Source: Acidimicrobiales bacterium
GTDB taxonomy: Bacteria > Actinomycetota > Acidimicrobiia > Acidimicrobiales > Aldehydirespiratoraceae
Length of the DNA stretch: 64,000 nucleotides
Direction: 5' to 3'
Assembly: GCA_965116865.1 (NCBI GenBank)
Contig: OZ220727.1
Span: 1,156,798 to 1,220,797, forward strand
Each line of letters opens with the position of its first letter. Position 1 is the first letter of the stretch. The translations under genes were made by a program, and so were the position numbers. Under the pieces are notes generated by a model, which saw only the letters and a program-made list of their open reading frames with translations, searched no databases and was not told the DNA's origin. Positions 13,616 through 62,520 of this stretch are shown in pieces.

Positions 13616-13628
13616 ACAGCGCGGCGCG

Positions 13629-32136: not shown

Positions 32137-32154
32137 CGCGCTGTTGGCTGAGGT

Positions 32155-34662: not shown

Positions 34663-34719
34663 CGTTGCCGTGTCCGTCGGTTCGGGGCCCCGGGCTGTTG
34701 CCGCGCGCCGACCGGTTGG

Positions 34720-35121: not shown

Positions 35122-35742
35122 TGTTGGTGGTGTCTTCGATGGGTGCGGGTCTGACTCGGTGCTTCGCTGGCTTCGTGTCTTGCAAACGATCTGTCGGCTG
35201 GTGCCCGTCGGGGACGCGCGCCAGCCGGTCGGAGGGAATGTGACCTGATAGGAGCCTCGGTTCGAGCGCCTTGAGTGTATTGTCGGTTGTTCCGGCCGGT
35301 GGTGCCCAGCCAGCTGGAAGTGGTCCAAAGGAAGGGCAGACCGATTGTGCCAGATGTACAACGAATCGTCATGGGTGGGGTGGACACCCACCGTGACGAG
35401 CGCACGGTAGGTGTCCATCGATTTGGCGGGGCGGCTGCTGGGCACGGCCTCGTTCGCGGTGACACGGGAAGGCTATGGGCAGCTACTGGGGTGGTTGCGC
35501 AGTCTCGGCGGGGTGGAGTGTGTCGGAGCAGAGGGCACCAGCAGCTACGGCGCGGGCCTGGCGCGTCGTCTCGCAGCGGAGGGCGTGAGCGTGGTCGAGG
35601 TGCTGCGCCCCAAGCGCGGGGCGCGCCGCGGGGACAAGTCGGATCCCGCGGATACCGAGGCGGCCGCGCGGGCTGTGCTGTCAGGAGAGGCCACAGCCCG
35701 CCCGAAGTCCGCTGACGGCCCGGTGGAGGCGATCCGGGTGCT

Positions 35743-35850
35743 GCGCGCCGCGCGGCGCTCCGCGGTCAAGGCCCGCACCCGAATCGCTGCTGCCTGCCTC
35801 GCTCACGGCTCACGCGCGCCGCGCGGCGCTCCGCGGTCAAGGCCCGCACC
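35743..35850. repeat. X-Y-X repeat, period 71 bp, disrupting the IS110 transposase frame
   Basis: The segment gcgcgccgcgcggcgctccgcggtcaaggcccgcacc occurs at 35743-35779 and 35814-35850. Confidence 0.9.
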
Positions 35851-36218
35851 GCCGCCGTCAACCAGATCAAAGCGCTGTTGGTGACCGCCCCCGAGCAGAT
35901 CGCCGCCCCGCTGCGGGGCCTTCGCACCGCCGCTTTGGTCGGTGCCTGTGCTCGACTGCGGCCCGATACCGCCGGCGGCGAGGCTGCCGGCGCGGCGAAG
36001 AGGACCATGCGCGGCCTGGCGCGACGGCACCGGGCGCTCAGCGGCGAGATAGACGAGCTCGACGCTGAGATCGCCCGCCTGTGCATGCAGGCGAATCCCG
36101 CTTTGATGGCCGCGCCCGGCGTCGGCGCGCAGACTGCCGCCGCGCTGCTCGTCGCCGCTGGCGACAACCCGCGGCGCCTGCACAGCGAGGCGTCCCTCGC
36201 GGCGCTCTGCGGAGCCGG

Positions 36219-36306
36219 CCCCATCGAGGCGTCCTCGGGGCGCACAATGGCTGTCCTCGTGGGCCGCGACAGCCAGTCGCCCCATCGAGGCGTCCTCGGG
36301 GCGCAC
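36219..36306. repeat. X-Y-X repeat, period 61 bp, disrupting the IS110 transposase frame
   Basis: The segment ccccatcgaggcgtcctcggggcgcac occurs at 36219-36245 and 36280-36306. Confidence 0.9.
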
Positions 36307-36454
36307 CGTGCGCCACCGCCTCAACCGCGGCGGCGACCGAGCAGCCAAACTCAGGACATTAGAGACCGAGCGCTTTGCGCAGTACCTCGTCGATGGCGCG
36401 GCGGCGTCGCAGCCGCCGGACCTGGCCCCTGATCCGCACCGATAGACCGTCTCG

Positions 36455-36703
36455 ATGTCCAAGGGCGCCTGCTGCGAGGCCGACGGACCACCGCCAGAGA
36501 ACGAGATACCGGTAGCCGACTACTTCCTGCAGTGCGCTGTCGAGGACGGCGAGAGCGAACAGCACATCGCCGAGCGCGTCGCGGCCGCCCTCTCGAACGG
36601 CACATCATGGAAGCGAGTCGCCGAGATCCTCGGGGTGTCAGTCGGCGAGGCCGAACGGCGCTTCGCTCACCTCCGGGCCAGCACATCGCCCGAACAGTCG
36701 TAG
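36455..36703 (+). CDS. small hypothetical protein with possible helix-turn-helix
   Basis: 82-aa ORF. SWKRVAEILGVSVGEAERRF looks HTH-like. No Shine-Dalgarno sequence was seen. Confidence 0.3.
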   Translation: MSKGACCEADGPPPENEIPVADYFLQCAVEDGESEQHIAERVAAALSNGTSWKRVAEILGVSVGEAERRFAHLRASTSPEQS

Positions 36704-36765
36704 AAGCTCCAACAGCGGGCGAGAGTCGCCGTCGGCGGACCACCACTGCCGCAGTTCACGAACAG

Positions 36766-37026
36766 TACCGGCCGAGGCTAGTCAGGGGACCTCCGTCGAC
36801 AGCGTCGTGGTGTTCCCATACGGTGCCGAGTTCGAGGCACCGGCCGAAGCTGGTCAGAGGACCTCCGTCGACAGCGTCGTGGTGTTCCCATACGGTGCCG
36901 AGTTCGAGGCACCGGCCGAAGCTGGTCAGAGGACCTCCGTCGACAGCGTCGTGGTGTTCCCATACGGTGCCGAGTTCGAGGCACCGGCCGAAGCTGGTCA
37001 GGGGACCTCCGTCGACAGCGTCGTGC
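36766..37026. repeat. 72-bp tandem array (3.6 copies)
   Basis: The segment gacctccgtcgacagcgtcgtg starts at 36788, 36860, 36932 and 37004. Confidence 0.95.
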
Positions 37027-38392
37027 TGGAGCTGGCCGACCCGCTCGGCCCGTGGGGCACCCGCCGGGCGGTCAATTGGCGGGCGGCACCCGGCTGGTAG
37101 CGTTCGCTGCGGGGACGGGCGTTGTAGTTCTCCATCCATTCCTGCACGTCGGCGTCGTTGTCGAAGTCGACGCCGTCGGCGATCATGTCGGTGACGATGT
37201 TGGTGGTGGCCGACCTCTTGGCCGGGTCCGCCGCGTTGGCCCTCATATCGCCGAACGCCCCTCGGGCCGCCTCGAGGTTCTCCTGCAACCGGTCCTGCGC
37301 GAGGCCCCGTTGCTGCGCCGCGAAGCGCAGCCATTGCGGGAACACCGACTCGACGACGTCGTGCCACCCCTCGTCGCACACCGACTTGGCCGGTATCCAC
37401 ACACTCACGAACTCCACAACCCTTCGCGGGCTCCAGCACAGCACATCACCGTCCCACCATGCTTCAGAGAACCGGCAGGCCGCCGCGAGCACCGTGTCGG
37501 CGTCGGAGGCGTCCCGCTCGTCGACCACGGCGCGGAACTCCCCGCGGAGGTCGTCGATCTCCTCGTCGGTCAGCCATCGGGGCCCGTGCTCCTCACCACA
37601 TGCCGGCAGCAGCCCGATCCGATGCTCCAACAGCGCCCTCAGCTTCTCGTCCATCATTTCGTCGTCACCGCCGTTGTCGCCGCCGTTGTCGCCGCCATGG
37701 CGGAGCGCCGCTGCGACGTCCTGCACCTCCAGAGCGGCCTCGACGATCACCCGAGCGTCACCCAGGCTGATCTCCTCCACTACCGCGTCGGGCCACTGCT
37801 TGAATTCTGCGGCCACCGTCTCAACCGCCGGGCCGTAGGCGAGACTGCTCGCGCCCTTGCCTGCCGTCGCGTGGACTGCGACGCCCATCCCCCGCACCGC
37901 GCCGTCGGGGCGCTGGAAGTCGATCCACACCGCTCGCTCGTCTCCCCATGGGTCGGTGAGCAGCACCGAGCGGCGCGGCACGACATCGCCGAGCGCCGCA
38001 GCCCAGCCAGGCGGCGGCTCACCGTCACCGGCCAACTGCTCCAACAGGTCATGCGCCTGGGCCCGGCATCCGGGCGGCCCGTACACCCCCATCGCCGCGG
38101 CCACCGCCCCGGCCGCGGCACGGTCGTCGCAGACCTCCGCCGCGGCCAGCACCCTCGGCGCAGCCATCGCGGGATCGCACGCGTAGACGAAGGGACGGAA
38201 CAGCGCCTGTATCGACGACGCCCAATACTCCGCCACGTCGAGGTCGGTGAGGACTGCGGCGTCGGCGGCGTCCGTCAACAGCACCTGTTCCAGCTGCGGT
38301 TCCGGGCCCGCAGCCGCCCTGAGGCGATCGCCGGGCCTGGTCCCTTTCGGCGTGACGCGACCGCCCCCGCAGCGGCGCTTCGGTCGTGGCAT
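36998..38392 (-). CDS. hypothetical protein (Arg/Lys-rich N-terminus MPRPKRRCGGGRVTPKGTRPG)
   Basis: Long ORF with coding-like composition. The preferred start is ATG 38392. The last roughly 20 codons are antisense read-through of the coxL-like fragment and repeat. Confidence 0.6.
   Translation of the reverse strand: MPRPKRRCGGGRVTPKGTRPGDRLRAAAGPEPQLEQVLLTDAADAAVLTDLDVAEYWASSIQALFRPFVYACDPAMAAPRVLAAAEVCDDRAAAGAVAAAMGVYGPPGCRAQAHDLLEQLAGDGEPPPGWAAALGDVVPRRSVLLTDPWGDERAVWIDFQRPDGAVRGMGVAVHATAGKGASSLAYGPAVETVAAEFKQWPDAVVEEISLGDARVIVEAALEVQDVAAALRHGGDNGGDNGGDDEMMDEKLRALLEHRIGLLPACGEEHGPRWLTDEEIDDLRGEFRAVVDERDASDADTVLAAACRFSEAWWDGDVLCWSPRRVVEFVSVWIPAKSVCDEGWHDVVESVFPQWLRFAAQQRGLAQDRLQENLEAARGAFGDMRANAADPAKRSATTNIVTDMIADGVDFDNDADVQEWMENYNARPRSERYQPGAARQLTARRVPHGPSGSASSSTTLSTEVP
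37007..37068 (+). other. 62-bp ectopic copy of an internal coxL segment
   Basis: This segment matches coxL 31604-31665 at about 58 of 62 positions in the same orientation. The matching peptide is TVDSVVLELADPLGPWGARG. Confidence 0.85.
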
Positions 38393-38467
38393 GTGCGGCC
38401 CCCTTGTTCTCTCCGGCACGGAACCGATCTGGGCATCGTCGCGCACCGACCGGATCCGTCTCTTCTA

Positions 38468-38819
38468 GCCGCGGCCGACGCACAACTGGGCGATCCCCCG
38501 CCGACCCAGCGTCGAGGCACCGACCACCCTCGGAATCCTCCTCAAGCCGCGGCCGACACACAACTGGGCGATCCCCCGCCGACCCAGCGTCGAGGCACCG
38601 ACCACCCTCGGAATCCTCCTCAAGCCGCGGCCGACACACAACTGGGCGATCCCCCGCCGACCCAGCGTCGAGGCACCGACCACCCTCGGAATCCTCCTCA
38701 AGCCGCGGCCGACACACAACTGGGCGATCCCCCGCCGACCCAGCGTCGAGGCACCGACCACCCTCGGAATCCTCCTCAAGCCGCGGCCGACACACAACTG
38801 GGCGATCCCCCGCCGACCC
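38468..38819. repeat. 78-bp tandem array (4.5 copies) in a divergent intergenic region
   Basis: The segment gccgcggccgac starts at 38468, 38546, 38624, 38702 and 38780. Confidence 0.95.
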
Positions 38820-38981
38820 GGCAGTCAGCCGAGGTTCTGACCGTCGATGAGAACTGTCGGGCGTCGAGGGTGCAGTGATCATTCCCGCTCACCCCCGACC
38901 AGGCCATGGCCGGTTCCAGGGCCGTCTACCGGCGGCACGGCGCCTGAGAATTCGAGCCGTGAAGTAGATTCGAGACGGCAA

Positions 38982-39404
38982 GTGAGACTCAACACCGATT
39001 TCTTGAACCGCTGCGTGCGGACGCTGGCCGCGGCTCTCGACCGCCTCGATGACGTCGAGACCGGCGACGACGACTACGACATCTTCAGGGCGGCCTGCGT
39101 CAAGGAGTTCGAGATCATCCTGGAACAGTGCGGCAGCCTTCTCAGGAAACGCCTCCGGCCCTACTTCTCATCGAACCGCGAGGCCGACTCGCTCGCCTTC
39201 AAGGCCACGTTCCGCGAGGCCGCCCGGCACGGCCTGATCGCAGTGGAGGCGTGCGAGCGGTGGCTGGAGTACCGCGACTGCCGCAACGACACGTCCCACA
39301 AGCACGGCGAGGCGTTCGCGGAGGCCACGCTGGCGGTGCTTCCGGCGTTCGTGGCCGACGCCCGCCGGATCGCCGCCGTCGTCGGGGAACCCTTCGATGA
39401 CTGA
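38982..39404 (+). CDS. HEPN-type nucleotidyltransferase substrate-binding protein (HI0074 family; HepT-like toxin)
   Basis: FRAACVKEFEIILEQCGSLLRK ... WLEYRDCRNDTSHKHGE carries the R-x4-H HEPN motif. The GTG 38982 start is in frame. Confidence 0.75.
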   Translation: MRLNTDFLNRCVRTLAAALDRLDDVETGDDDYDIFRAACVKEFEIILEQCGSLLRKRLRPYFSSNREADSLAFKATFREAARHGLIAVEACERWLEYRDCRNDTSHKHGEAFAEATLAVLPAFVADARRIAAVVGEPFDD

Positions 39405-39741
39405 CCGGCTGGATCTTCGCTGCCGCCACCGCCGACGGGTCGAGGCGCTGCTCGCGGCCCATGTGCCCGACACCGAAGTGTGGGCCTACGGCAGCCGTGT
39501 CAACGGCGGAGGCCACGAGGCAAGCGACTTGGACCTCGTGCTGCGCGGCCCTAACCTCGGCCCGATCCCCCGCGGGCGCATGGCCCGGCTCGATACCGCT
39601 CTCGAACAGTCCAACATTCCCATCGTGGTGCAGACCCTCGACTGGGCAAGGCTGCCGCAGAGCTTCCGCGACGAGATCGAGAAGCAGTACGTGGTCCTAC
39701 GCGCGGCGCCTCAGCCCAGCCCCGACCGACAGGCAGAATGA
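39397..39741 (+). CDS. minimal nucleotidyltransferase (MNT/HI0073-like antitoxin)
   Basis: AYGSRVNGGGHEASDLDLVL matches the GS..G..DxD motif. Its ATG overlaps the upstream stop. Confidence 0.8.
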   Translation: MTDRLDLRCRHRRRVEALLAAHVPDTEVWAYGSRVNGGGHEASDLDLVLRGPNLGPIPRGRMARLDTALEQSNIPIVVQTLDWARLPQSFRDEIEKQYVVLRAAPQPSPDRQAE

Positions 39742-40400
39742 GCCGCGGCGGCGAACTGCACCGCCAGAGGCTCGACACCGGAGCCTGCGACGTCGGCGAG
39801 CCGTCCGGGACCGACTATGCGGCCTTGACAACGCACCGCCAGAGGCTCACACCGGAGCCTGCGACGTCATCTGACAGCGTCGACGAGCAGCACCTCAGGA
39901 GTTCCCTCGCCGTCTGGCTCGTGCGCGTCCGCGACGGCGCCGACCCCGACCCGGTCGCCGCCACACGCTTCGCGGACGTGTCCGCCGACCATCCCCACGC
40001 CGCGTTCATAGAACGCTTCGCTCAACTCGAAGTCACCGAAGGCTGCCGCGACGGCACCCGCTACTGCCCCGACGACACCGTCACCCGTGCCCAGATGGCG
40101 AGCTTCCTGCACCGTGCCCGGACCCTGAAACTCCTCGAGCTCGACGACGCGCCCGCGCTGGAGGTGCTCCGAGCCGACCCGCACCTGGTGGGCACCTACC
40201 CGCCGCCGGTGGTCATAATGGCAGCGCCTCCCCGCGGTGTTCGACGCCGTGAGACGGGCCGTGGACGACGACCGCTCCCCGGGGCGGTTCCTCATCACCG
40301 GCTCAACCTCGCCCAAGCGGCCTCCGACCACCACTCTTCACGGCTGAGCCGATGCACGGCTTCGGCCACGACATCGAGCATGGTCGTGCCCCGCTGCTGA
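39738..40400 (+). pseudogene. composite remnant: SLH-like domain fragment followed by a fragment of a DUF4143-type AAA ATPase
   Basis: FADVSADHPHAAFIERFAQLEVTEGCRDGTRYCPDDTVTRAQMASFLHRA is SLH-like. In another frame at about 40240-40350, AVFDAVRRAVDDDRSPGRFLITGSTSP parallels residues of the 41708..43000 ATPase (GRPGQFILTGSAVP). Confidence 0.35.
39759..39868. repeat. X-Y-X repeat, period about 75 bp
   Basis: The segment caccgccagaggctcgacaccggagcctgcgacgtc occurs at 39759. The second copy at 39834 has a 1-nt deletion. Confidence 0.85.
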
Positions 40401-40468
40401 GCCAAGCGAGAAATCTCGTCCCTCAACTCGACGGGGACCCGCAACGCAGTAGTCTCAGAAAGCGCCAT
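40295..40468 (-). CDS. orphan ribbon-helix-helix (CopG/Arc-like) protein
   Basis: MALSETTALRVPVELRDEISRLAQQRGTTMLDVVAEAVHRLS has the typical RHH beta-alpha-alpha pattern, starting at ATG 40468. No partner toxin is adjacent. Confidence 0.5.
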   Translation of the reverse strand: MALSETTALRVPVELRDEISRLAQQRGTTMLDVVAEAVHRLSREEWWSEAAWARLSR

Positions 40469-40613
40469 ATTTGTAGCCCAACAAAGCAACTCCATGCACC
40501 CTAGTGCTGTGTCGTCGAAATGGCTAGGGCAGCGCAGCAGGACCGAGACCCTGCTTGGGAGCGCTCCGGACACCCCGATTATTTCAGCGACGGACCCCTA
40601 GCTGGTAGCAATT

Positions 40614-40640
40614 CTACTGCTACTATAGTAGTATTATAAT
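40614..40640. promoter_or_regulatory. AT-rich operator/promoter of mazEF
   Basis: CTACTG CTACTATAGTAG contains a perfect 12-bp palindrome at 40620-40631. TAGTAT and TATAAT hexamers lie just upstream of ATG 40642. There is no Shine-Dalgarno sequence. Confidence 0.5.
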
Positions 40641-40641
40641 T

Positions 40642-40866
40642 ATGAAAATCAGTGTGAGCATTCCTGAGGGCGATGTCGAGTTCCTGGACGACTACGCCGC
40701 GACCCATGGCATGGCGTCCCGGTCGGCAGCACTGCAACGGGCGATACGGCTGCTACGGGCCAACGAACTGTCGCGGCACTACGCGGCAGCCTTCGCCGAA
40801 TGGGCTGACGACGCCGACAGCCGCGTGTGGGATGACGCCGTCGCCGACGGGCTGAGTGGAGACTGA
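40642..40866 (+). CDS. mazE: RHH antitoxin (MazE/CopG-like)
   Basis: MKISVSIPEGDVEFLDDYAATHGMASRSAALQRAIRLL is an RHH fold. Its stop overlaps the toxin ATG by 1 nt. Confidence 0.7.
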   Translation: MKISVSIPEGDVEFLDDYAATHGMASRSAALQRAIRLLRANELSRHYAAAFAEWADDADSRVWDDAVADGLSGD

Positions 40867-41213
40867 TGCGACGGGGCGAGATCCGCATCGTCGGGCTGGA
40901 CCCGGTGGTGGGCACCGAGTCGGCCCGGACCCGTCCCGCGGTGGTCGTCAGCAACGACGGCGCCAACACGATCGCGGCTCTGCTGGGGCAGGGCGTCGTG
41001 ACGGTCGTCCCGGTGACTTCCAACACCGAGGTGATCCACCCCTTCCAAGTGATGCTGGCCGCGTCCAGCACCGGCCTCAGGCTCGACTCGAAGGCCCAGG
41101 TCGAGCAGATCAGATCTGTAGACGTGAAGCGGATCGGCGACACGGTCGGCCTGGTGCCGCTCGATCTCATGGCGCAAATCGAAGACGCCATGCGACTGCA
41201 TCTGGAACTCTGA
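40866..41213 (+). CDS. mazF: MazF/PemK family endoribonuclease toxin
   Basis: MRRGEIRIVGLDPVVGTESARTRPAVVVSND ... VVPVTSN ... AQVEQIRSVDVKRI is the typical PemK pattern. Confidence 0.85.
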   Translation: MRRGEIRIVGLDPVVGTESARTRPAVVVSNDGANTIAALLGQGVVTVVPVTSNTEVIHPFQVMLAASSTGLRLDSKAQVEQIRSVDVKRIGDTVGLVPLDLMAQIEDAMRLHLEL

Positions 41214-41707
41214 CATCCGGCCCGGCAGCCGGCCGGAGCGCGAAGTGTCTGAGTTCGCCGCGGCCCGCCGTTCGATGACGACTCGCCGGGCGCCGACAAC
41301 GAGCACCGCGAGCCAGCACCGTTCCGAACTCACAAACCCCGCAACACAAAAACACCGCCCCCCGACGCCGAACACGCGCTACTCCGGCCCAGCTGGAAGC
41401 TGCTCGACACCCTCACCCCGACCTGAACGCGGAAAGCCTGTAATCGTCGATGAACTCGCCCAGTGACCGAGCCTCCACGCCGACCAAGCGCTCACAGCGA
41501 CGCCACGGCTCCAGAAGACTCTGCCACATTTTTCCTTTCTAAAAGGAGAAAATATCAGTGAATTGTCCTTTTCAAGAGGAGAAGTTTCTGCCATGGTGCG
41601 GTCCGGCAGCAGAGCGGATGCTTCGGATGGGACGTGTTGACTTGTAGCGAATTGCATTCGATCGCCGGCTTGAGGCAGCGCGCCGCTGCCCCGTGACGAC
41701 AGTCGTC

Positions 41708-43000
41708 TCAGGGTGCCAGGGCGGTGATGGGGGCCACTGCCACGCCGTCGGGGCGCTCGTAGGCGTATCCGCCGGCGGTGACGACGAGCAGTTTGGCCGG
41801 CTCGCCCGCCTTGTCGAGGTTCACCTTGTTGCGCAGCCGCAGAAGCGCGGCCGCGGCGTCATCGGGGCCGCGGCCGCCGCCGAGCTTGATCTCCGCGGCG
41901 ATCCACCGCCCGTCGGAGCGTTCGAGGACGGCGTCCACCTCCAGTCCGGTGTTGTCGCGGTAGTAGTGGATGCTCGCGTCGTTGGCCTCGGCGTACACCC
42001 GCAGGTCGCGCACCGCCAAGGCTTCGAACAGTGCGCCGAACCCCCTCGGGTCGGCCATGAGCCGGGCCCGGTTGGACCGCAGGGCCGCCACCGCCAGCGA
42101 CGGGTCCACCAGGTAGCGCTTCGGTGTGGCCGCGATGTGAGCCCGGGACCGCAGATCGGCGGGCCACGGGGTGAGATGCTCCAGGACGAACAGCTGCTCC
42201 AGGGCCGACAGGTAGGCGGCCACCGTCCTCGGGTCCGCGGGGCGGACCGTGTCCATGTCGGCCGCGAGGACCCTTCGTGAGGCGCTGGTGGCGATGTTGC
42301 GGGCCAGCGACTCCAGCAGCCGAGCCACGCCCGCAGGGTCGCGGCGGGCCCGGTCGACGTACTCGATGTCGGCCTTGCACAGGTCGGCCAGATAGTCGCG
42401 CAGCACCTGCTGGGCCCCGGCGCCGTCGGCAGTCACCAGCGCGGGCCAGCCGCCCCGGCACACCAGCTCGTAGACGTCGGGCTCGTCGCCGATCGCGGGC
42501 GCCGACACCTCCCCGGAGCCGAACAGGGCGCCCAGCGACACGGCCCCGGACGACTCGCCGGACTCGAACAGCGTCATGGGCCGCATCCGCACCCTGCGCA
42601 CCCGCCCCGCCCCGGTGTGGCGGGTGTGGCTGTCGGGCGGCACCGCCGAGCCGGTGAGGATGAACTGCCCCGGCCGTCCGATCTCGTCGCAGGCCCGCCG
42701 CATCGGGTTCCAGATGCCCGGCGACAGGTGGTACTCGTCGATGAGCCGGGGCCGCTCGCCCTCTAGCAGCAGCCTCCTGGCCATTGCCGAGGTGAGAGCT
42801 GCCGACTCCTCGGCGTCGATCAGCACGGCGCTGCGGGCCGCGTTGCCTCCCGTCCAGGTCTTGCCGCAGGCCCGCGGGCCCTCGACGAGCACCGCCGGGG
42901 CAGCCCCGAGGGCCTGAGCGAGAAGTGCGTCCGCGATCCGGGGCCGGTACCGCCCGCGGATCGTCATCAAGAGAGGATGCTCGCCCATCGCGCTGTCCAC
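41708..43000 (-). CDS. AAA ATPase with DUF4143-type C-terminal domain
   Basis: Walker A-like GPRACGKT and Walker B-like LIDEYH. The C-terminal restriction-endonuclease-like part contains YYRDNTGLEVDAVLE. 430 aa. The start could be GTG 43000 or ATG 42988. Confidence 0.75.
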   Translation of the reverse strand: MDSAMGEHPLLMTIRGRYRPRIADALLAQALGAAPAVLVEGPRACGKTWTGGNAARSAVLIDAEESAALTSAMARRLLLEGERPRLIDEYHLSPGIWNPMRRACDEIGRPGQFILTGSAVPPDSHTRHTGAGRVRRVRMRPMTLFESGESSGAVSLGALFGSGEVSAPAIGDEPDVYELVCRGGWPALVTADGAGAQQVLRDYLADLCKADIEYVDRARRDPAGVARLLESLARNIATSASRRVLAADMDTVRPADPRTVAAYLSALEQLFVLEHLTPWPADLRSRAHIAATPKRYLVDPSLAVAALRSNRARLMADPRGFGALFEALAVRDLRVYAEANDASIHYYRDNTGLEVDAVLERSDGRWIAAEIKLGGGRGPDDAAAALLRLRNKVNLDKAGEPAKLLVVTAGGYAYERPDGVAVAPITALAP

Positions 43001-43252
43001 AAAATCAATGTATCAAATTTGAGCTGTACAATGCACTAATATCAAATGCCGCAATGCATGAATGCTCGCCCGTGAGATTCTGCTCGAGAAGGACGGCCCG
43101 GCTGGAATTGTCTCTTGCGGAACGGAGACCGCGCAGGAGGCGAGCGGGCCCGCCGTGCGCGGCCGGCGCCGCAGGACACCATTGATCGCGGGCCGCGCAG
43201 GCGACGGAGCCGCCCGCCTGAACCGGAACCGCTCGCCTGTGCGCTCGGCCGA

Positions 43253-43678
43253 TCAGAGCGGGTTGCGCCAGCGCAGCCCCGGGAAGCGAGCGAAGTCGCT
43301 GTCGTTGGAGTGGACTTCGGCTTGGTGCTCGACGGCCAGCGCGGCGATGTGAGTGTCCGTGACGAGGTTGCCCCCCACGCCGGCGGCAGTCAGCATGCTT
43401 CGGAAGACAGCGATGTGCTGCGTGCCCGGGTTCAGCGGTGTGACGCCGGGCGACCGGAACCATTCGGCCACGAGGTCGACGGCGTGCTCCGGAGCCGCCG
43501 GCGCGTCCATGACACTGGGATGGGTGAGCAGCCGCACGAACCCGGCAGCCACGAGCCACGGAACCCCCACTCGCTCAGTTCCGTTCACCGCGTCCTCCCA
43601 CCACCGGCGCGCCGGTCCGTGCAACCGCGCACCGGTGCTGTGTGCGTAGACGAGCAAGTTCAGGTCTGGGACGATCAA
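43253..43678 (-). CDS. vapC: PIN-domain toxin
   Basis: TTG 43678 gives (M)IVPDLNLLVYAH... with VTDTHIAALAVEH and SNDSDFARF. A 4-nt TTGA overlap links it to the antitoxin stop. Confidence 0.8.
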   Translation of the reverse strand: MIVPDLNLLVYAHSTGARLHGPARRWWEDAVNGTERVGVPWLVAAGFVRLLTHPSVMDAPAAPEHAVDLVAEWFRSPGVTPLNPGTQHIAVFRSMLTAAGVGGNLVTDTHIAALAVEHQAEVHSNDSDFARFPGLRWRNPL

Positions 43679-43932
43679 TGTGGCGGCGAGCCCGTGAAGC
43701 CGGCAGCCTCGAGCGAGTCGTTGACCTGGTTCAGCCGCAACGGATCGACGCCGGGCCTGAAACCGCTGTCGTGGCACCTGACCACATAGTCGGGCCTCGG
43801 CTCTGCCGGCACAGGGGACAGACCCCGCCGCAGAGTGTCGTTGACGACCTTCTTGAACGGCTCCCCCGCCAGTTGGGCCTGCTCCTTCAGAGCCGCGGCC
43901 AAGTCGTCGTCGAGAGTCAACGTTGTACGCAT
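43675..43932 (-). CDS. vapB: VapB-type antitoxin
   Basis: MRTTLTLDDDLAAALKEQAQLAGEPFKKVVNDTLRRGL from ATG 43932. The upstream part of the track ORF is repeat read-through. Confidence 0.75.
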   Translation of the reverse strand: MRTTLTLDDDLAAALKEQAQLAGEPFKKVVNDTLRRGLSPVPAEPRPDYVVRCHDSGFRPGVDPLRLNQVNDSLEAAGFTGSPPH

Positions 43933-44004
43933 CAAGACATCGTAGCACCTTCTTTGAATGATGCCTTGACGCTCCGCCTCGATCGCAGCAGGCCCTCGAT
44001 GCTC

Positions 44005-44550
44005 GGAAGACCCCCGCGTGGGCGGCGCCTCAGACGGTCCACCTCCTCGCAGACCCGGCGCTTGGGGAAGACCCCCGCGTGGGCGGCGCCTCACCCCCGG
44101 ATCCGTCGCAGCGCCTCTGTCGCGTTCATCGGCAAAGCGGTCCGCACCCGCGTGGGCGGCCCTTCACCCCCGGATCCGTCGCAGCGCCTCTGTCGCGTTC
44201 ATCGGCAAAGCGGTCCGCACCCGCGTGGGCGGCCCTTCACCCCCGGATCCGTCGCAGCGCCTCTGTCGCGTTCATCGGCAAAGCGGTCCGCACCCGCGTG
44301 GGCGGCCCTTCACCCCCGGATCCGTCGCAGCGCCTCTGTCGCGTTCATCGGCAAAGCGGTCCGCACCCGCGTGGGCGGCCCTTCACCCCCGGATCCGTCG
44401 CAGCGCCTCTGTCGCGTTCATCGGCAAAGCGGTCCGCACCCGCGTGGGCGGCGCCTCACTCCCGGATCCGTCGCAGCGCCTCTGTCGCGTTCATCGGCAA
44501 AGCGGTCCGTACCCGCGTGGGCGGCCCTTCACCCCCGGATCCGTCGCAGC
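44005..44550. repeat. tandem array, 8 X copies (first interval 61, then 75, then 72 bp x5), seeded on the HIT gene stop
   Basis: The segment acccccgcgtgggcgg / acccgcgtgggcgg starts at 44010, 44071, 44146, 44218, 44290, 44362, 44434 and 44506. The unit contains ccttcacccccggatccgtcgcagc, which is the last 6 codons plus the TGA of the HIT gene. Confidence 0.95.
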
Positions 44551-45134
44551 TGGCCAGCCGCCGCCTGGCTCGGCCATGCGGCGGTCAGGCGCTCCCAGCA
44601 GTCCTGGAGGCTCCGGGGCAGGACCCTCACGTCGGCGATGGCGGTCATGAAGTTGGTGTCGGAACGCCAACGGGGCAGCACGTGAATATGGACATGGTCG
44701 AAGACGCTGGGGCCGGCGCCCTCTCCGAGATTGGCGCCGATGTTCACCCCGTCGGGCGAGAACGCGGCCTTCACCGCGGCCACAGCGTCGTGGACGGTGT
44801 CCCAGAGCTCGCGGCGCTCGCCGGAGTCCAGGCCCTCCAGGTCTCCAACAGCCCGATAGGGCAGGATCAGCAGGTGGCCCGTGGAGTACGGGTAGCGGTT
44901 CAGGATGGCGAAGACCAGTTCGCCCCGATGCACGATGTGGGTCTTGTCGTCGGGCAGGCCCGAGCTGAGGATGGCCTCGAACAGGCTCTTGCCCTCCCCG
45001 ACGCCCGGGCCGGTCCCGGCGCCGGGGACCGTGCCCGGGATGGTGCCGGAAGAGTTCACGATCCCGGCGGCGGCCGCCTCCCGGCCCTCCATCATGGCAG
45101 GGATCCGCCACCCGGCCCAGAGGCGCTCCACCAT
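44529..45134 (-). CDS. HIT-family nucleotide hydrolase/transferase (Ap4A phosphorylase-like)
   Basis: Histidine triad HVHIHVLPR, plus NRYPYSTGHLLILPYR. Confidence 0.8.
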   Translation of the reverse strand: MVERLWAGWRIPAMMEGREAAAAGIVNSSGTIPGTVPGAGTGPGVGEGKSLFEAILSSGLPDDKTHIVHRGELVFAILNRYPYSTGHLLILPYRAVGDLEGLDSGERRELWDTVHDAVAAVKAAFSPDGVNIGANLGEGAGPSVFDHVHIHVLPRWRSDTNFMTAIADVRVLPRSLQDCWERLTAAWPSQAAAGQLRRIRG

Positions 45135-47124: not shown

Positions 47125-47188
47125 CGCCTGCGAGGCTACCGCTGCCCCTGAGGGCGCGGCTCCGCTCGAACGGCGGTCCACGGCGTCC

Positions 47189-47464
47189 GAGCCGCTCCAA
47201 GGGGGCCGAGCCGCCCCAAGGAGGTCTCGTGCGGACGACTCCCTGCAGCCGCCGACGCCGGAGCCTCACCGTGCGCATCGCCCGCAACCGGAGAGGTCTC
47301 GTGCGGACGACTCCCTGCAGCCGCCGACGCCGAGATCTGGCAGCGGCGGCGCTGGTGCCCCAAGGAGGTCCCGTGCGGACGACTCCCTGCAGCCGCCGAC
47401 GCCGAGAGCTGGCAGCGGCGGCGCTGGTGCCCCAAGGAGGTCTCGTGCGGACGACTCCCTGCAG
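47189..47464. repeat. repeat-spacer-like array, period 72 bp (X 40 bp, Y 32 bp), in the thrS/fabI divergent region
   Basis: X (gaggtctcgtgcggacgactccctgcagccgccgacgccg) occurs at 47221, 47293 and 47365, with a partial copy at 47437. Y1 at 47261-47292 differs from Y2 and Y3 (47333, 47405), which differ from each other by 1 nt. Confidence 0.9.
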
Positions 47465-47582
47465 TGCTGTCCGGGGCTGATCCGTGGCCGGCGTGCTCCC
47501 TGATCGTCGCGACGCCCGAGAAGACCCCCGCGCCCCGGGCCGCGTCGTGGAACGGCACGTTCTCAAGGTACCGTTGGCGGCT

Positions 47583-55342: not shown

Positions 55343-55380
55343 GGCGGTGCGCCCATGGCGGCCCGACCCGGTCCCTCCCG

Positions 55381-55492
55381 GCCCGCGCAACAGAGACAAC
55401 GCCTGTGGTTGTCGCACCTTGAAGATCTCGTCGGCGGTCATGCGCCGCACGGAGCCCGCGCAACATAGACAACGCCTGTGGTTGTCGCACCT
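55381..55492. repeat. X-Y-X junction repeat, period 73 bp, seeded on the stop of the 55491..56912 gene
   Basis: The segment gcccgcgcaaca(g/t)agacaacgcctgtggttgtcgcacct occurs at 55381-55419 and 55454-55492. Each X carries the hairpin gacaac-gcctgtg-gttgtc. Confidence 0.9.
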
Positions 55493-58584: not shown

Positions 58585-58679
58585 TGACTCAGCCCTCCCG
58601 TGTATGTCTCCCGCCGCCGGCCCGAGCAGCCAGTCCGAAGGGGCTCACCCACAACCTGCCGGCCGGGTGGGTGGGCATT

Positions 58680-59087
58680 TCACCACACCGTCGGCGCCGA
58701 GGGGGACCCGCGGTGCCGTCTCATGCGGTCGTCCTTGGCGACGAGGCTCCAGCCGTGCTCGACGGCAGTGGCGTAGATCAGACGGTCCGCGGGGTCGCCG
58801 GGGAACGTGTCGGGCAGAGACGCCGCGATGGACGCGACGGACGGGCTCGACACCGCTGCACGAACGGACTCGGCGAGCTGTCCGAGCCATCTGCCAATGG
58901 GCAGGCTCACACTGATCCGGCCCCGTCGGGCCAGCCAGCCGAGCTCATACCAGGTGATGGCGGCCACCGCTAGCTCGTCGGCTTCCTCCAGTGCGGTCCG
59001 CGCTGCGGCACTGACCCGTTCGGGCTCGGCAGACCACCAATGAAGAACATGAGTGTCGACAAGGAGCGCGCTCAATCGAAGTCCCAC
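58680..59087 (-). CDS. vapC: PIN-domain toxin
   Basis: LLVDTHVLHWW ... ITWYELGWL ... DPADRLIYATAVEH. The GTG 59087 start overlaps the antitoxin 3' end. Confidence 0.75.
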   Translation of the reverse strand: MGLRLSALLVDTHVLHWWSAEPERVSAAARTALEEADELAVAAITWYELGWLARRGRISVSLPIGRWLGQLAESVRAAVSSPSVASIAASLPDTFPGDPADRLIYATAVEHGWSLVAKDDRMRRHRGSPSAPTVW

Positions 59088-59299
59088 TCCGCGCCGGTAG
59101 TGAAGAGGGGCTCGCCATCGGTGACGCTTCGAGCCACGCCGATGAACCGGCCCCGCAGAGAGGCGGGTCCGGAGGCCGGTACGAGCCGGGCGACGGTGCG
59201 GCCGTGCTTGGTTATCTCGATCTCGTCTCCGGCTGCGACATCGTCCAGCAGAGCGAGGATGCCGGCCTTCGCCTGAGTTGCCGTCACTTGCCTGGCCAT
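59072..59299 (-). CDS. Phd/YefM-type antitoxin
   Basis: QVTATQAKAGILALLDDVAAGDEIEITKHGRTVARLVP is the typical Phd/YefM N-terminal fold pattern. Confidence 0.75.
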   Translation of the reverse strand: MARQVTATQAKAGILALLDDVAAGDEIEITKHGRTVARLVPASGPASLRGRFIGVARSVTDGEPLFTTGAEWDFD

Positions 59300-59318
59300 A
59301 TTGCCATTGTAATGGCCA

Positions 59319-60677
59319 TCACCGGTGTGCGCTGCCGCCAGAGAGATGCTCCACTAGCCGTTCCAGCCCGGCGACCCGCGATCCCTTCACCAGCACGGCC
59401 GATGAATCGTCCAAGGGACCGATGCCTGCCAGTGCGGCCAGGGCTCCGGCGATGCCCTCTGCCTCCACGGCTGCGGCTCCGCCCGACGAATAGAGCGGCG
59501 CGTCGACTGCGATCACCTTGATTCCGAGCTGTCCTGCCAACGAGCCGACGGCGGCATGCTCCGCGGCTTCGAACTCCCCGAGTTCCGCCATAGTGCCCAG
59601 CACGGCGATACGGCGCGAGGCTGGCAGCGCTGCCAAGGCGCGCAGGGCCGCCCGCATCGACAGCGGATTGGCGTTGTAGGTGTCGTTCAGGAGTCTGGCG
59701 CCCCCTGCAGTCCGCACGACCTCCATACGCAACGGCGACAGCGTCGGCTCCGCCAGCCCCGCCGCCACATCGTCCAGCGCCACCCCGAGTTCGATGCCGA
59801 CCGCGGCTGCGGCCAGGGCATTGTCGACCGAATGCAGGCCGCGGGCTCCCAGCTCGACCTCGATCTCCCCGGCCGGGCTCTGAAGCACGAAGCGGGGGGT
59901 GAGTTCGTCATCGAGGGTGAGGTTCCGTGCCCGCACCTCGCCGCCGGCGCCGAATGTGACCACCCGGACGTCCGCGGCCTTCGCCATGGCGGCCACCTCG
60001 GGCACGCCCGAGTTGAGGAAGGCCACTCCCCCGACGCCGGCAGCGGGGAGGCACTCGACCAGCTCCCGCTTGGCCGCCACCACCGCGGCGAGCGACCCCA
60101 GCTCGCTGGTGTGCGACAGCCCCACCGTGGTGACCACGCCCATGGTCGGACGGGCCACACGACACATTTCGGCGATGTGCCCGGCGCCCCTCGAACCCAT
60201 CTCGACCACCAGCGCTTCGACGTCGTCCGGGGCCGACAGCAGAGTGATCGGCACTCCGATCTCGTTGTTGAACGACCGGGTGCTGGCCCACACCCGTCTG
60301 TCCCGCCCGAGCACCGCTGCCAGCAGGTCCTTGGTGATGGTCTTGCCCACCGACCCGGTCACGCCCACCACCGGCGCCGACCCGAGCCGGCGCCGTGCAG
60401 CGCAGGCCAGGGCGGTCAACGCTGCCAGGGTGTCGTCCACCTCCACCGCGGCGGCGTCGACACCGACGGGCCCGCGGGCGGTCAGATAGGCGGACGCGCC
60501 TGCTGCGACCGCATCGGCGATGAAGTCGTGACCGTCGCGCTCGGCCACCAGCGGGACGAACAGCATGCCCGGCTGCACGTCTCGGCTGTCCTGGATGGCG
60601 CCGTCGATCGTGGCGGCACCGTCGCCGCGCAGGCAGCCCCCGGTGGCCGCCGCGACCTCATCGAGCGTCCAGCGCAT
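59319..60677 (-). CDS. murF: UDP-N-acetylmuramoyl-tripeptide--D-alanyl-D-alanine ligase
   Basis: ATG 60677 gives MRWTLDEVAAATGG...IQDSRDVQPGMLFVPL. P-loop VGVTGSVGKTITKD. The C-terminal end is Mur-ligase-like. The upstream 181 codons of the track ORF are repeat read-through. Confidence 0.85.
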   Translation of the reverse strand: MRWTLDEVAAATGGCLRGDGAATIDGAIQDSRDVQPGMLFVPLVAERDGHDFIADAVAAGASAYLTARGPVGVDAAAVEVDDTLAALTALACAARRRLGSAPVVGVTGSVGKTITKDLLAAVLGRDRRVWASTRSFNNEIGVPITLLSAPDDVEALVVEMGSRGAGHIAEMCRVARPTMGVVTTVGLSHTSELGSLAAVVAAKRELVECLPAAGVGGVAFLNSGVPEVAAMAKAADVRVVTFGAGGEVRARNLTLDDELTPRFVLQSPAGEIEVELGARGLHSVDNALAAAAVGIELGVALDDVAAGLAEPTLSPLRMEVVRTAGGARLLNDTYNANPLSMRAALRALAALPASRRIAVLGTMAELGEFEAAEHAAVGSLAGQLGIKVIAVDAPLYSSGGAAAVEAEGIAGALAALAGIGPLDDSSAVLVKGSRVAGLERLVEHLSGGSAHR

Positions 60678-60708
60678 GCCGCGAGTGTTGCACGCCCAGC
60701 CACGGCTG

Positions 60709-60885
60709 GCAGAACAAAGCACGCGCGCGCACGCCATGCACGACCGGTGCGCGTGTTTGGACCGAACACGCGCACCGGTGGCAGAACAAAGCGCGCGCAC
60801 GCCATGCACGACCCCGGTGGCCCGGCCCCGGTGGACGGCCCGCAGCCGCGCAGAACAAAGCACGCGCGCGCACGCCATGCACGAC
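60709..60885. repeat. repeat-spacer-like array (X 36/32/36 bp, two unrelated Y of 36 and 37 bp) in the murF/ddl divergent region
   Basis: X (gcagaacaaagc(ac)gcgcgc(gc)acgccatgcacgac) occurs at 60709, 60781 and 60850. Y1 (60745-60780) is a perfect 14-bp-stem hairpin. Y2 (60813-60849) is unrelated to Y1. Confidence 0.9.
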
Positions 60886-60935
60886 GCTGCCATTTCGGCG
60901 CCGGCGCTAGCGTCGTCGGCGTGGAGGACCGCAGG

Positions 60936-62048
60936 GTGAGGCTGGTCGTGCTGTTCGGAGGACGCTCCGCCGAACACGACGTGTCGTGCGTCTCGGCCCG
61001 TCATGTGGTGGCCGCCGCCGATCCCGCGAAGTACATCGTCGAGCCGGTGGGCATAACCCGGGAGGGCCGCTGGGTGCGGGCGACGGAAGCCCTCGGCGCC
61101 GGCTCCGACGCTCTGCCCGAGCGACTCAGCGCCGCCGGTCAGGAGATCGAGCCTCTGACGCTGGCCGCAGACCGCGGAGACGACCCGTCCCGACCGACGG
61201 TGGTGCTTCCGATCCTGCACGGTCCGATGGGCGAGGACGGAACGGTGCAGGGCTTGCTGGAGCTGGCCCGGGTCCCCTACGCCGGGGCCGGGGTGCTGGC
61301 CTCAGCGCTGTGCATGGACAAGACCGCGGCCGCGACGATGCTGACAGCGGCCGGCATCGCCCACACCCGCTGGCGCAGCATGACGCTCGACGACCCGGAC
61401 GCTAGCGACGCCGCGCTGGCACCGCAGGTCGAGGCCATCGTCGATGATCTCGGCCTGCCGGTGTTCGTGAAGCCGGCCGGCATGGGATCGTCGGTCGGCA
61501 TCTCCAGGGCGGCCACCCGCCGCGGCATAGCCGACGGACTGCGCCTGGCATGCCGCTACGACCGATCCGTCATCGTGGAGGAGGAGGCCCGTGCCCGCGA
61601 GATCGAGGTGGCCGTGCTCGGCAACGACGAGCCCGCAGCGAGCCTGCCCGGTGAGATAGTCCCCGGCGCGGACTTCTACGACTACGCAGACAAGTACGAC
61701 GACGGCGCCGATCTGCTGGTCCCGGCGCCCCTCGACGACGACGAGACCGACGCTTGCCGGAGCCTCGCCGTCGCCGCCTACCGGGCGCTGCGGGCGGAGG
61801 GCCTGGCCCGGGTGGACTTCCTGTACGAGGACGGGCGCGGCGGGCGCGGCGACCGGGGCTGGATGGTGAGCGAACTGAACACGATGCCGGGCTTCACTCC
61901 CATATCGATGTACCCGAAGCTCTGGGCCGCGACCGGGCTCACCTACCCCCGGCTCATCGACCGTCTCGTGGAGCTTGCCCTGGAACGCCACGCCCGCCGC
62001 GAGCACCACACCCGCACCGATCCCGACACCGCCCTTCGCTTCGACTGA
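60936..62048 (+). CDS. ddl: D-alanine--D-alanine ligase
   Basis: GTG 60936 with GGAGGA 7 nt upstream. VVLFGGRSAEHDVSCVSA, ILHGPMGEDGTVQGLLEL and ELNTMPGFT. Confidence 0.9.
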   Translation: MRLVVLFGGRSAEHDVSCVSARHVVAAADPAKYIVEPVGITREGRWVRATEALGAGSDALPERLSAAGQEIEPLTLAADRGDDPSRPTVVLPILHGPMGEDGTVQGLLELARVPYAGAGVLASALCMDKTAAATMLTAAGIAHTRWRSMTLDDPDASDAALAPQVEAIVDDLGLPVFVKPAGMGSSVGISRAATRRGIADGLRLACRYDRSVIVEEEARAREIEVAVLGNDEPAASLPGEIVPGADFYDYADKYDDGADLLVPAPLDDDETDACRSLAVAAYRALRAEGLARVDFLYEDGRGGRGDRGWMVSELNTMPGFTPISMYPKLWAATGLTYPRLIDRLVELALERHARREHHTRTDPDTALRFD

Positions 62049-62139
62049 CAGGCCGATCGGCGCGCCGTGCATGGCGAGCGGCCCGTGATGCCGGTGGATT
62101 CAGGCTCCATCAGAAGTCGGCCGCGCTCGGCAGCAGGCT

Positions 62140-62403
62140 TCATCGAGACCTGCAGACGTCGCGGCGATGGCCGACGCGGATCACATGGATCACCAGGCGC
62201 TCGCCGATGACCTCATACAAGATCCGATAGTCGCCGACGCTCACCCGATACACGGACTCCTCACCCGCGAGAGCGACACAGTTCGGAGGCCTCGGCTCGT
62301 CAGCCAGCAGGTCTATCGCGGCTCGAACACGGCGCTGTTCGTGACGGGGCGCGGTTGGAGTTGGTGTTACCGCGTTCATTCGTCGCAGCATCGCCGGGGT
62401 CAC
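62140..62403 (-). CDS. relE: RelE/ParE-family toxin, N-terminally atypical and without a cognate antitoxin gene
   Basis: C-terminal YRVSVGDYRILYEVIGERLVIHVIRVGHRRDV is the canonical RelE/ParE core. The N-terminal strand and helix are replaced by repeat-derived sequence. Confidence 0.6.
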   Translation of the reverse strand: MTPAMLRRMNAVTPTPTAPRHEQRRVRAAIDLLADEPRPPNCVALAGEESVYRVSVGDYRILYEVIGERLVIHVIRVGHRRDVCRSR

Positions 62404-62459
62404 GGCCTCGACGTCCAGTCAATAGTTGGAGTTGGTGCTACCGCGTTCATTCGTCACAG
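62354..62459. repeat. X-Y-X junction repeat, period 71 bp, at the relE 5' end
   Basis: The segment gttggagttggtg(t/c)taccgcgttcattcgtc(g/a)cag occurs at 62354-62388 and 62425-62459. X contains an ATGA stop/start junction on the minus strand. Confidence 0.9.
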
Positions 62460-62520
62460 TGTCTTGAGACCGGCTGAACTGGAGAGATTTCGTATGATGT
62501 TCCACCCTCGCCGAGGCCGC

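Follow-up and report, generated by a model that had tools for sequence, protein, structure and literature searches.

Between the divergently oriented genes murF and ddl of an Acidimicrobiales bacterium lies an array of three copies of a native 36-nt sequence separated by two unrelated fillers of similar length. About 20 further loci of the same build, each made from its own local sequence, are scattered over the 64-kb stretch of contig OZ220727.1 (assembly GCA_965116865.1) that was analysed, hereafter the window. We consider it an even call that the murF-ddl array is the scar of ectopic integration by an adaptation-type integrase, either of the Cas1-Cas2 type or with the same geometry. Within this reading, the array was very probably made by a genome-wide "insert and duplicate" process, and the case for Cas1-Cas2 as the enzyme falls a little short of even.

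The array between murF and ddl

The array has the form X1-Y1-X2-Y2-X3 (Table 1), in which X is the 36-nt sequence GCAGAACAAAGCACGCGCGCGCACGCCATGCACGAC. An initial annotation had placed X at 60709, 60781 and 60850, with a middle copy 4 nt shorter, and these coordinates hold far above shuffle expectation. Exact 36-mers of X occur twice (0.00 expected), and the 12- and 13-nt end motifs of X occur three times each (0.13 and 0.41 expected). No exact or near match to X or its ends exists elsewhere in the window, and an exact search for the X pattern found it in none of 185,579 GTDB representative genomes. The identical gap and the same arrays recur on an independent contig of a different metagenome sample (L001/L093), which matches the window at 99.93% over 11.5 kb; thus, the array is no assembly artefact. 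ENA ERZ25072196 ctg183246 represents a near-identical strain.

The two fillers are unrelated, as first annotated. Alignments of Y1 with Y2, and of either filler with X, the reverse complement of X or the flanks, score no better than dinucleotide shuffles (p 0.1-0.9). Two specific origins were rejected: Y1 as an inverted copy of X, for which the alignment is not significant, and Y2 as a decayed copy of the ddl promoter/Shine-Dalgarno region, to which the resemblance is weak (p about 0.1). Neither filler has a match in IMG/VR, INPHARED phages or PLSDB plasmids, a weak negative given that these databases are poor in relevant viruses. Y1 does form the hairpin first described, within a near-perfect palindrome: its computed arms (60743-60760 and 60762-60779) are 18 nt each and 94% complementary, with one mismatch. 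The unit X1+Y1 has a folding energy of -25.9 kcal/mol (z = -3.65; 0 of 200 shuffles equal it) and is the sole significantly structured unit of all arrays tested, the others ranging from z -1.4 to +0.9. Rfam covariance models run over 58-64 kb gave just one chance microRNA match, on the palindrome (E-value 0.16).

The repeat is native to the locus. The close relatives all carry in the same gap a palindromic element of ~49 nt, here called E, which reads GAAyTGGCAGC-acaaTGCACGcataCCGTGCAaaac-GCTGCCAATTC, that is, TGGCAG, about 30 nt and CTGCCA. Two to four copies are present in the gap of ten relatives (L002, L003, L082-L087, L091 and L092; L082 was an extra relative found in JGI metagenomes via the conserved ddl-promoter pattern). 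The copies keep a 71-72-nt register and are separated by mutually unrelated spacers of 15-25 nt. The murF-ddl gap of L004 and L005 lacks E. X3 and the adjoining GCTGCCATTTC give an alignment of 47 columns to the relatives' E, interrupted by a single 6-nt gap (score 41 vs null 15.4 +/- 3.4). Judged by this alignment, X is the left arm and interior, or left three quarters, of a resident E and not foreign DNA.

Several spacers are orthologous between relatives (L091-S1, L002-S1 and L003-S; L085-S1 and L092-S1; L091-S2 and L085-S2; all p <= 0.001). Y1 and Y2 align with no relative's spacer, at equal murF divergence (80-86%). As far as these comparisons tell, the array architecture of the gap is therefore old in the clade, and the fillers and the re-duplication are specific to the window genome. 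The initial annotation had read repeats and spacers alike as insertions. This stands for the fillers and the re-duplication but not for the repeat, which is a homologue of resident E in an ancestral array of two to four units. Of the two outcomes that the annotation had named as refuting it, neither is seen in full: Y1 and Y2 do not align as diverged copies, and the relatives share an array with conserved spacers but none of them carries Y1 or Y2.

The array might instead be an inherited cluster of E units resembling REPINs (hairpin-forming doublets of repetitive extragenic palindromic (REP) sequences), its three units descending from the three E units that, for example, L091 and L085 carry. 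Gene conversion would have homogenised the X parts, overwriting a differing unit-3 interior, and indels would have replaced or scrambled the DNA between units, including two right arms. Unit number, register (72 and 69 vs 71-72 nt) and a short left flank all agree with L091, and X3 with its flank makes a complete E. The element is also dispersed (two loci within 21 kb of L085), with two copies 71 nt apart at the second L085 locus, and PMC3116915 describes Pseudomonas tandem REPIN clusters with a short non-repeated stretch between units. Nevertheless, we regard this history as unlikely. L003 and L091 share 81% murF identity and the window is 80-82% identical to either, yet their spacers align with each other (p = 0.001), while neither Y1 nor Y2 aligns with anything. 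Gene conversion would need tracts that stop at the same sharp 36-nt borders in every copy, and about 20 equal-sized loci of unrelated local sequence would be left unexplained. The folds of the other units are ordinary, which argues that those units are not REP-like. A hairpin-driven origin of all the arrays was rejected on the same folds, which are ordinary except for Y1.

Repeat-filler-repeat loci across the window

The murF-ddl array is one of many. A census of direct repeats that are exact over 18 nt or more and lie no more than 300 nt apart, with two coding micro-repeat regions excluded, returned 24 loci in the window. About 21 repeat-filler-repeat loci, ~1 per 3 kb, are present in its 64 kb. 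The initial annotation had counted the murF-ddl array as the second with heterogeneous inserts; it is indeed one of several such arrays, but the loci number about 21 rather than two, and their sizes are quantised. Spacing is bimodal, with values of 61, 61, 61, 62 and 63 nt in one group and 68-78 nt (mode 71-72) in the other, plus 45, 54 and 98 nt. The same scan over 648 kb of distant Acidimicrobiia and other loci gave 20 repeat pairs, 2 of the 20 falling at 61-78 nt without forming a peak. Over 159 kb from close relatives it gave about five pairs at 71-73 nt, all linked to E or to the murF-ddl gap. Tandem Repeats Finder and repeat searches identified a dozen intergenic arrays with periods of 63-78 nt, all different in sequence, and the k-mer census added ten single-event loci.

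The arrays are not simple tandem duplications. In 11 of them, length equals n times the period plus 31-48 nt, which implies n+1 repeats and n fillers. Simple tandem duplication was ruled out by the half unit at array ends and by fillers unlike the flanks, although simple duplications do occur in the window as well (14904 and 48342). Where copies are identical, repeat and filler lengths are 28/33, 28/33 and 29/33 in a short class and 34/38, 36/35, 35/37 and 37/34 in a long class. The locus at 55381 (39/34, one mismatch between copies), that at 63275 (34/37, 2.5 copies) and the murF-ddl array (36/36/37) accompany these, and older events at 2595, 34557 and 39775 fit the size classes if mismatches are allowed. 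Unit copies reach 6.5 at some loci. At least two different fillers sit on the same or overlapping repeat at four loci (60709, 47215, 53148 and 44005/44074), which suggests a site preference. One repeat terminus carries GTC in 5 of 16 loci, where 0.76 would be expected (post hoc p = 0.0004). The 36218 repeat, read in reverse, starts with GTGCGCCCCG and has a CCCC/GGGG stem; we take it to resemble type I-E repeats.

Relatives retain empty sites. The locus at 28913 (28913-29019) has a 35-nt repeat and a 37-nt filler, an in-frame insertion of 72 nt or 24 codons in a gene. Its repeat is coding and lies at the beginning of the Fer2 domain in a xanthine-dehydrogenase-type FAD/Fe-S subunit. L088 and L089 carry this 35-nt repeat once, followed by the downstream sequence, without the filler; in L090, divergence prevents an alignment. 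The 49638 repeat covers the ATGA where two CNNM genes overlap; in L088-L090 it is single-copy and filler-free. In the murF-ddl gap, no relative examined has a single-E empty site; a single E would nevertheless be the starting state there.

In-register identity between fillers and flanks is absent in eight arrays (all p > 0.05). The 55381 filler matches 27 of 28 nt at window positions 32057-32084, the start region of the first open reading frame (ORF) of a 12.8-kb island; junction microhomology is at most 1 nt and 6 nt are unexplained. The 39775 filler has 16 exact nt in common with 26473-26488.

Arrays at gene junctions are also seen in relatives. In L085 (17946-18130), two E copies 71 nt apart separate two thiolase-like genes at their 2-nt junction (TGAccGTG), with a target duplication of 29 nt around them; the empty site is at L083 17830-17860. 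Through this duplication, the upstream gene retains its stop codon and the downstream gene its ribosome-binding site and start. ENA ERZ25067264 ctg836641 is of the L085 type. At the ATGA junction of OB_ChsH2 and thiolase genes, L083 (16629-16804) and the equivalent positions of L087, L086 and L085 have a 40-nt array of 4.4, 3.4, 2.6 and 2.2 copies, respectively. Its unit is a 10-codon mini-ORF opening with the first codons of the downstream gene, an arrangement like that of mycobacterial interspersed repetitive units (MIRUs).

Replication error without an integrase is a second route to such loci. Template switching of the kind termed microhomology-mediated break-induced replication or fork stalling and template switching would have the nascent strand leave the template once the repeat was copied, take up the filler from a short stretch elsewhere and return upstream to recopy the repeat, and slippage would amplify the product into a minisatellite like those of MIRUs and variable-number tandem repeats (VNTRs). 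The filler templated elsewhere in the same genome at 55381 fits this account, as do the host-like G+C of fillers, the arrays over stop and start codons at gene junctions (49638, 63275 and the mini-ORF array of L083), the copy-number differences of that array in close relatives, and the simple duplications. Template switching has no ruler, however, and predicts neither the 28/33, 28/33, 29/33 and 34-37/34-38 lengths nor the peaks at 61 and 71-72 nt. It also leaves unexplained the roughly 100-fold excess over other Acidimicrobiia, and the 55381 junction, with its scant microhomology and 6 unexplained nt, speaks against it. We therefore think it quite unlikely.

A MITE-like element (miniature inverted-repeat transposable element) of ~135 nt, with terminal inverted repeats of ~22 nt (AGAGCGAGCGCGAATAGGTGAG and CTCGCCTATTCGCTCGGCCTCT), has copies in the window at 1510-1648, 10239-10378 and 13473-13621, and in L085 (20632-20770), L004 (8658-8715) and L089 (18642-18742). 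The copy at 10239 supplies part of the 9924 array repeat, which includes 26 nt of the element's end. The idea that the arrays are by-products of this element was dropped, as 9924 is the single array that abuts a copy. The 12.8-kb island (31785-44571) is missing from L088-L090, where the xanthine-dehydrogenase and HIT/ThrRS genes adjoin. It contains MazF, VapC, HEPN/MNT and DUF4143-ATPase genes, several ORFs without a family match, coding repeats at 32754-33416 and 33957-34593 (312 nt x 2), and eight repeat-filler-repeat loci. A 482-aa ORF with good codon bias (36998-38446, minus strand) is flanked by arrays 36767-37025 and 38460-38819, the two most deviant in repeat and filler lengths; considered as a candidate enzyme, it has no Pfam, NCBIfam or PDB match.

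At 47150-47523, the window has lost a tRNA-synt_1e (CysS/MshC-like) gene of ~375 aa that relatives carry between an SDR gene and thrS; 374 nt stand in its place, including the heterogeneous 72-nt array 47215-47464. At 55355-55490, it has 136 nt, mostly the 55381 repeat-filler-repeat, where L083-L087 have ~3.5 kb (two OB_ChsH2 and two thiolase-like genes) between a 461-aa gene and an M23 peptidase gene. A 34-nt duplication with a 38-nt filler (72 nt, in frame) lies at 4192-4297 in the C-terminal tail of an ABC-3 (Znu/Mnt-type) permease, past the Pfam domain. In-frame coding repeats form low-complexity linkers in the N-terminal regions of a Bmp-family lipoprotein (24092-24320; 15-nt x 15.5) and a ZnuA-type binding protein (5725-5858; 18-nt x 7.3).

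Ectopic integration and what weighs against it

Under the integration reading, the murF-ddl gap would have begun with a single resident E lying between the back-to-back murF and ddl promoters. On two occasions, the 36-nt stretch X of E would have been cut in a staggered manner at both ends, unrelated DNA of 36 or 37 nt (Y1, Y2) joined in, and X duplicated by gap filling. Replication slippage may afterwards have shortened the GC run of X2 by 4 nt. Integration of this kind would also have acted at about 20 other window sites, duplicating 28-29 nt and inserting 33, or duplicating 34-37 nt and inserting 34-38. Slippage between the duplicated copies would then have amplified some units, up to 6.5 copies, which is plausible because the copy number of the 40-nt array varies among near-identical relatives.

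It is the dimensions that point to an integrase of CRISPR adaptation. Type I-E systems reportedly duplicate 28 nt and insert 33 nt, and several other CRISPR types have 36-37-nt repeats with spacers of about 35 nt. The two size classes of the window match these in turn, the short one type I-E and the long one the systems with 36-37-nt repeats, and they suggest an enzyme of the Cas1-Cas2 type, or one with the same geometry, acting off target. Off-target Cas1-Cas2 integration that seeds new arrays is described by Nivala et al. 2018, as cited in 10.1101/148544, PMC7054753 and PMC11788318, and off-target sites in vitro are given in PMC6698737.

Several observations weigh against integration of this kind. 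The ORFs of the window and of 9.3 kb beyond it (73 kb in total, of a 3.32-Mb contig) include no cas genes, and no canonical CRISPR array was found there. A density of ~1 event per 3 kb, to our knowledge, far exceeds any reported rate of off-target integration. The relatives' E arrays hold their 71-72-nt register with a duplicated part of 49-57 nt (L003, L085) or ~17-20 nt (L092), which suggests that the period itself, rather than repeat and filler separately, may be what is measured. Periods of 61.5 and 72 nt are one helical turn apart, which may point to another kind of ruler. The E insertion at the L085 thiolase junction pairs its 29-nt duplication with an insert of 126 nt, and the three X copies match units 1-3 of L091, the closest relative, by position. 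Some multi-copy arrays are outliers in size: 38460 (48/30), 36767 (43/29), 21203 (38/25) and 49638 (31/39). The 38460 filler is also the sole one with a gapped local resemblance to its left flank. Filler G+C (0.706) equals that of host and window (0.695), none of 22 fillers matched INPHARED phages or PLSDB plasmids, and four exact scans of IMG/VR gave no filler match either.

The enzyme may also be other than Cas1-Cas2 and of a new kind. If the density in the window extends genome-wide, the integrase would have acted at hundreds of chromosomal sites and seeded many new repeat-spacer arrays, being either a CRISPR adaptation integrase or an enzyme that measures six or seven helical turns (61.5/72-nt periods). 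We put this forward tentatively, as an interpretation with appreciably less than an even chance of being right.

By its geometry, the array would pass for CRISPR: its repeats fall within 23-50 nt (36-nt X, one copy 4 nt shorter), and its unique spacers are of similar length (36/37 nt). That it is a true orphan CRISPR array of small size, with transcripts that serve interference, is hardly credible, for all its three repeats, unique spacers and regular period. X derives from a promoter-region element common to relatives and is absent from the GTDB species representatives. There are no cas genes nearby and no AT-rich leader, and the spacers are without a match. The repeats of the other arrays are gene junctions, a MITE end or coding sequence rather than array-specific sequence, and since each of about 20 sister arrays has its own repeat, no single Cas6/Cascade could process them.

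The integration reading finds its nearest parallel in neo-CRISPR arrays (Nivala, Shipman & Church 2018, Nat Microbiol 3:310, as cited). In both, a repeat-length chromosomal target is duplicated around a spacer-length insert, and repeated hits on one site grow a mini-array with different spacers. Targets may be partly repeat-like, and the classes 28-29+33 and about 35+37 are known CRISPR geometries. The window differs in that neither it nor the 9.3 kb beyond it shows cas genes or a parent array, and in its far higher number of events, about 21 in 64 kb of natural genome. Among the sites hit are promoters of essential genes, junctions within operons and, in frame, the inside of a gene; many of its loci are amplified with identical fillers, and some are off the size classes. 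The fillers are host-like in composition and have no known protospacer.

Three other systems were compared. Like REP/REPIN sequences (Bertels & Rainey 2011, PMC3116915), E is an extragenic hairpin of ~49 nt built from two inverted halves. In L085 it occupies at least two loci, and it occurs in tandem units with short non-repeated DNA between them; in Pseudomonas, GI REP doublets likewise have a spacing of about 71 nt. However, no REP-associated tyrosine transposase (RAYT) was seen in the sequence examined. IS200/IS605-type mobility proceeds without target duplication, whereas the L085 E insertion has one of 29 nt. Furthermore, what is repeated in the murF-ddl gap of the window is just a truncated E, and the other ~20 arrays are not hairpin elements. 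MIRUs reportedly lie at operon junctions, overlapping stop and start codons. The window arrays resemble them in being actinobacterial tandem units of 40-100 nt that lie between genes, often at operon gene junctions over stop and start codons, with a copy number that varies between strains. Yet MIRUs are one dispersed family, whereas each window locus has its own local sequence and unrelated filler, none of them shared. The murF-ddl units, moreover, are not head-to-tail identical and lie between divergent promoters, not in an operon. MIRU-VNTRs are minisatellites (PMC3635867). A literature search on Acidimicrobiia tandem repeats and actinobacterial minisatellites yielded nothing relevant.

The insertion sequences (ISs) of the IS1634/IS1549 group are said to make long, variable target duplications. 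They share with the window direct target duplications of tens of nt in an actinobacterium. Theirs flank complete ISs of >1.5 kb, whereas the window inserts are 33-38 nt long, have no common ends and come with a quantised duplication.

Promoters, neighbouring genes and implications

The head-to-head order of murF and ddl is kept throughout the class. Their gap measures 43-80 nt in distant class members and 154-360 nt in the closest relatives. The annotated starts of both genes agree with their translations and Pfam domains, and are backed by translated N-termini and Pfam domains on identical called genes. Judged by its MurF homologues, the window belongs to Acidimicrobiales, near 'Ca. Aldehydirespirator' and sponge-associated metagenome-assembled genomes.

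Table 1. Features of the murF-ddl locus (window positions)
Feature	Position	Strand	Details
murF	59319..60677	minus	452 aa; ATG 60677; translation MRWTLDEV...; Pfam Mur_ligase_M/C; >2400 homologues
Putative extended -10 of murF	60684..60692	minus	TGcAACACT, 6 nt before ATG
TGGCAG, left inverted-repeat arm of E	60707..60712	no strand	reverse complement CTGCCA 17 nt upstream of murF -10
X1, repeat copy 1	60709..60744	no strand	exact, 36 nt
Y1, filler 1	60745..60780	no strand	36 nt, near-perfect palindrome
X2, repeat copy 2	60781..60812	no strand	32 nt; 4-nt deletion in alternating GC run
Y2, filler 2	60813..60849	no strand	37 nt, 89% G+C; internal 14-nt tandem copy (60806-60833)
X3, repeat copy 3	60850..60885	no strand	36 nt, identical to X1; with 60886-60896 completes an E element
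Right inverted-repeat arm of E, GCTGCCATTTC	60886..60896	plus	contains -35-like CTGCCA (60887-60892) of ddl
Putative -10 of ddl, TAGCGT	60908..60913	plus	GGCGCTAGCGTCG invariant in window, L002-L005, L082-L087, L091 and L092
Putative Shine-Dalgarno of ddl, GGAGGA	60923..60928	plus	TGGAGGA(C/T)C conserved, 7 nt before start codon
ddl	60936..62048	plus	370 aa; GTG 60936; N-terminus VRLVVLFGGRSAEHDVS; Pfam Dala_Dala_lig_N/C

Conserved blocks next to each gene suggest where transcription starts. On the murF side, read on its own strand, the block TGn-(C/A)AnnCT, 6 nt and the start codon is conserved in the window, L002-L008 and L083-L092. The murF mRNA is probably leaderless, since the putative extended -10 stands so close to the ATG. 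The TGGCAG arm keeps the same distance from the murF -10 in L091, and its complement CTGCCA may act as a -35. On the ddl side, blastn homology to relatives restarts exactly at 60885, and GCTGCCAATTC is conserved in all ten relatives with E. The block in close relatives runs GCTGCCAATTC, ~16 nt, TAGCGT, ~9 nt, GGAGGA, 7 nt and start, which would correspond to a -35-like box, a -10 and a Shine-Dalgarno sequence. The spacer between the -35-like box and the -10 is 15 nt in the window and 16 nt in relatives. A consensus promoter scan of the gap, whose DNA is G+C-rich, gave no match.

The initial annotation had placed the array where both genes must be transcribed. From the conserved blocks, this probably does not hold: the likely core promoters (60684-60692 and 60886-60928) are outside X1-Y1-X2-Y2, with the array between them. 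The array is therefore probably tolerated, and no support was found for a dedicated regulatory role in murF or ddl.

Such a role would take one of two forms. X could provide operators, or weak terminators against read-in to murF; alternatively, a Z-DNA-prone run in X and a cruciform-prone Y1 would absorb the negative supercoils of divergent transcription. In keeping with a regulatory or insulating device, a hairpin-plus-T-run pattern gives eight overlapping matches on the minus strand of the three X copies (0.3 expected), X carries a 16-nt perfectly alternating purine-pyrimidine run, Y1 is a strong hairpin, X1 equals X3 although the fillers differ, and the gene arrangement is kept across the class. 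Even so, we find this very improbable. The terminator-like stems of X need three G-T pairs, Y1 is without a T run, and no upstream transcription unit is evident that would lead from the array towards murF. Distant relatives, with their short gaps, do without such an element; spacers and interiors differ in relatives; and there is no Rfam match for it. Sister arrays break translational coupling (49638) or sit in genes (28913), where they can only be neutral or harmful, which argues for a mutational process rather than design.

At 58585-59318 and 62100-62520, toxin-antitoxin genes (PhdYeFM, PIN and ParE-like) and a YgjP-like gene flank murF and ddl; they are not at these positions in the closest relatives (compare L083). 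The 9.3 kb beyond the window hold a type I restriction-modification locus and toxin-antitoxin genes but no further arrays. Within L093, gene calling breaks the type I restriction gene hsdR (6656-9862, window-equivalent positions about 63.4-66.6 kb) into four pieces (HSDR_N, ResIII, one of 39 aa and T1RH-like_C), which makes it a probable pseudogene; pairs of HicAB and HEPN/MNT toxin-antitoxin genes alternate with hsdM and hsdS. In L004 (3716-3893), a further array of 72 nt x 2.5 separates the ddl coding region from its Shine-Dalgarno sequence, and its unit includes a copy of the Shine-Dalgarno/start region.

For murF and ddl themselves the message is modest: divergent core promoters likely tolerate 140 nt of extra DNA between them. 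The count of about 21 loci with quantised sizes shifts the explanation away from regulation at one locus and towards an insertion process that is genome-wide. Annotation is affected too: loci of this build will be misread by CRISPR finders and in promoter analyses.

Loci of this kind bear on how new CRISPR arrays are born and on what uncontrolled spacer integration costs the cell. The evidence for off-target integration comes mainly from Escherichia coli over-producing Cas1-Cas2, and natural cases are just circumstantial (10.1101/148544). Dozens of clean, datable events in one wild genome would allow target choice, the rulers of repeat and spacer length, and the selective filter to be measured directly. 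In the window, this filter shows in intergenic sites, in in-frame hits and in stop and start signals that are duplicated where genes of an operon meet. Were an enzyme other than Cas1-Cas2 responsible, the two periods that differ by one helical turn would point to an undescribed mechanism of DNA insertion. Should integration at hundreds of chromosomal sites prove true, either the birth of CRISPR arrays or a new class of short-insert integrase would be at work in nature.

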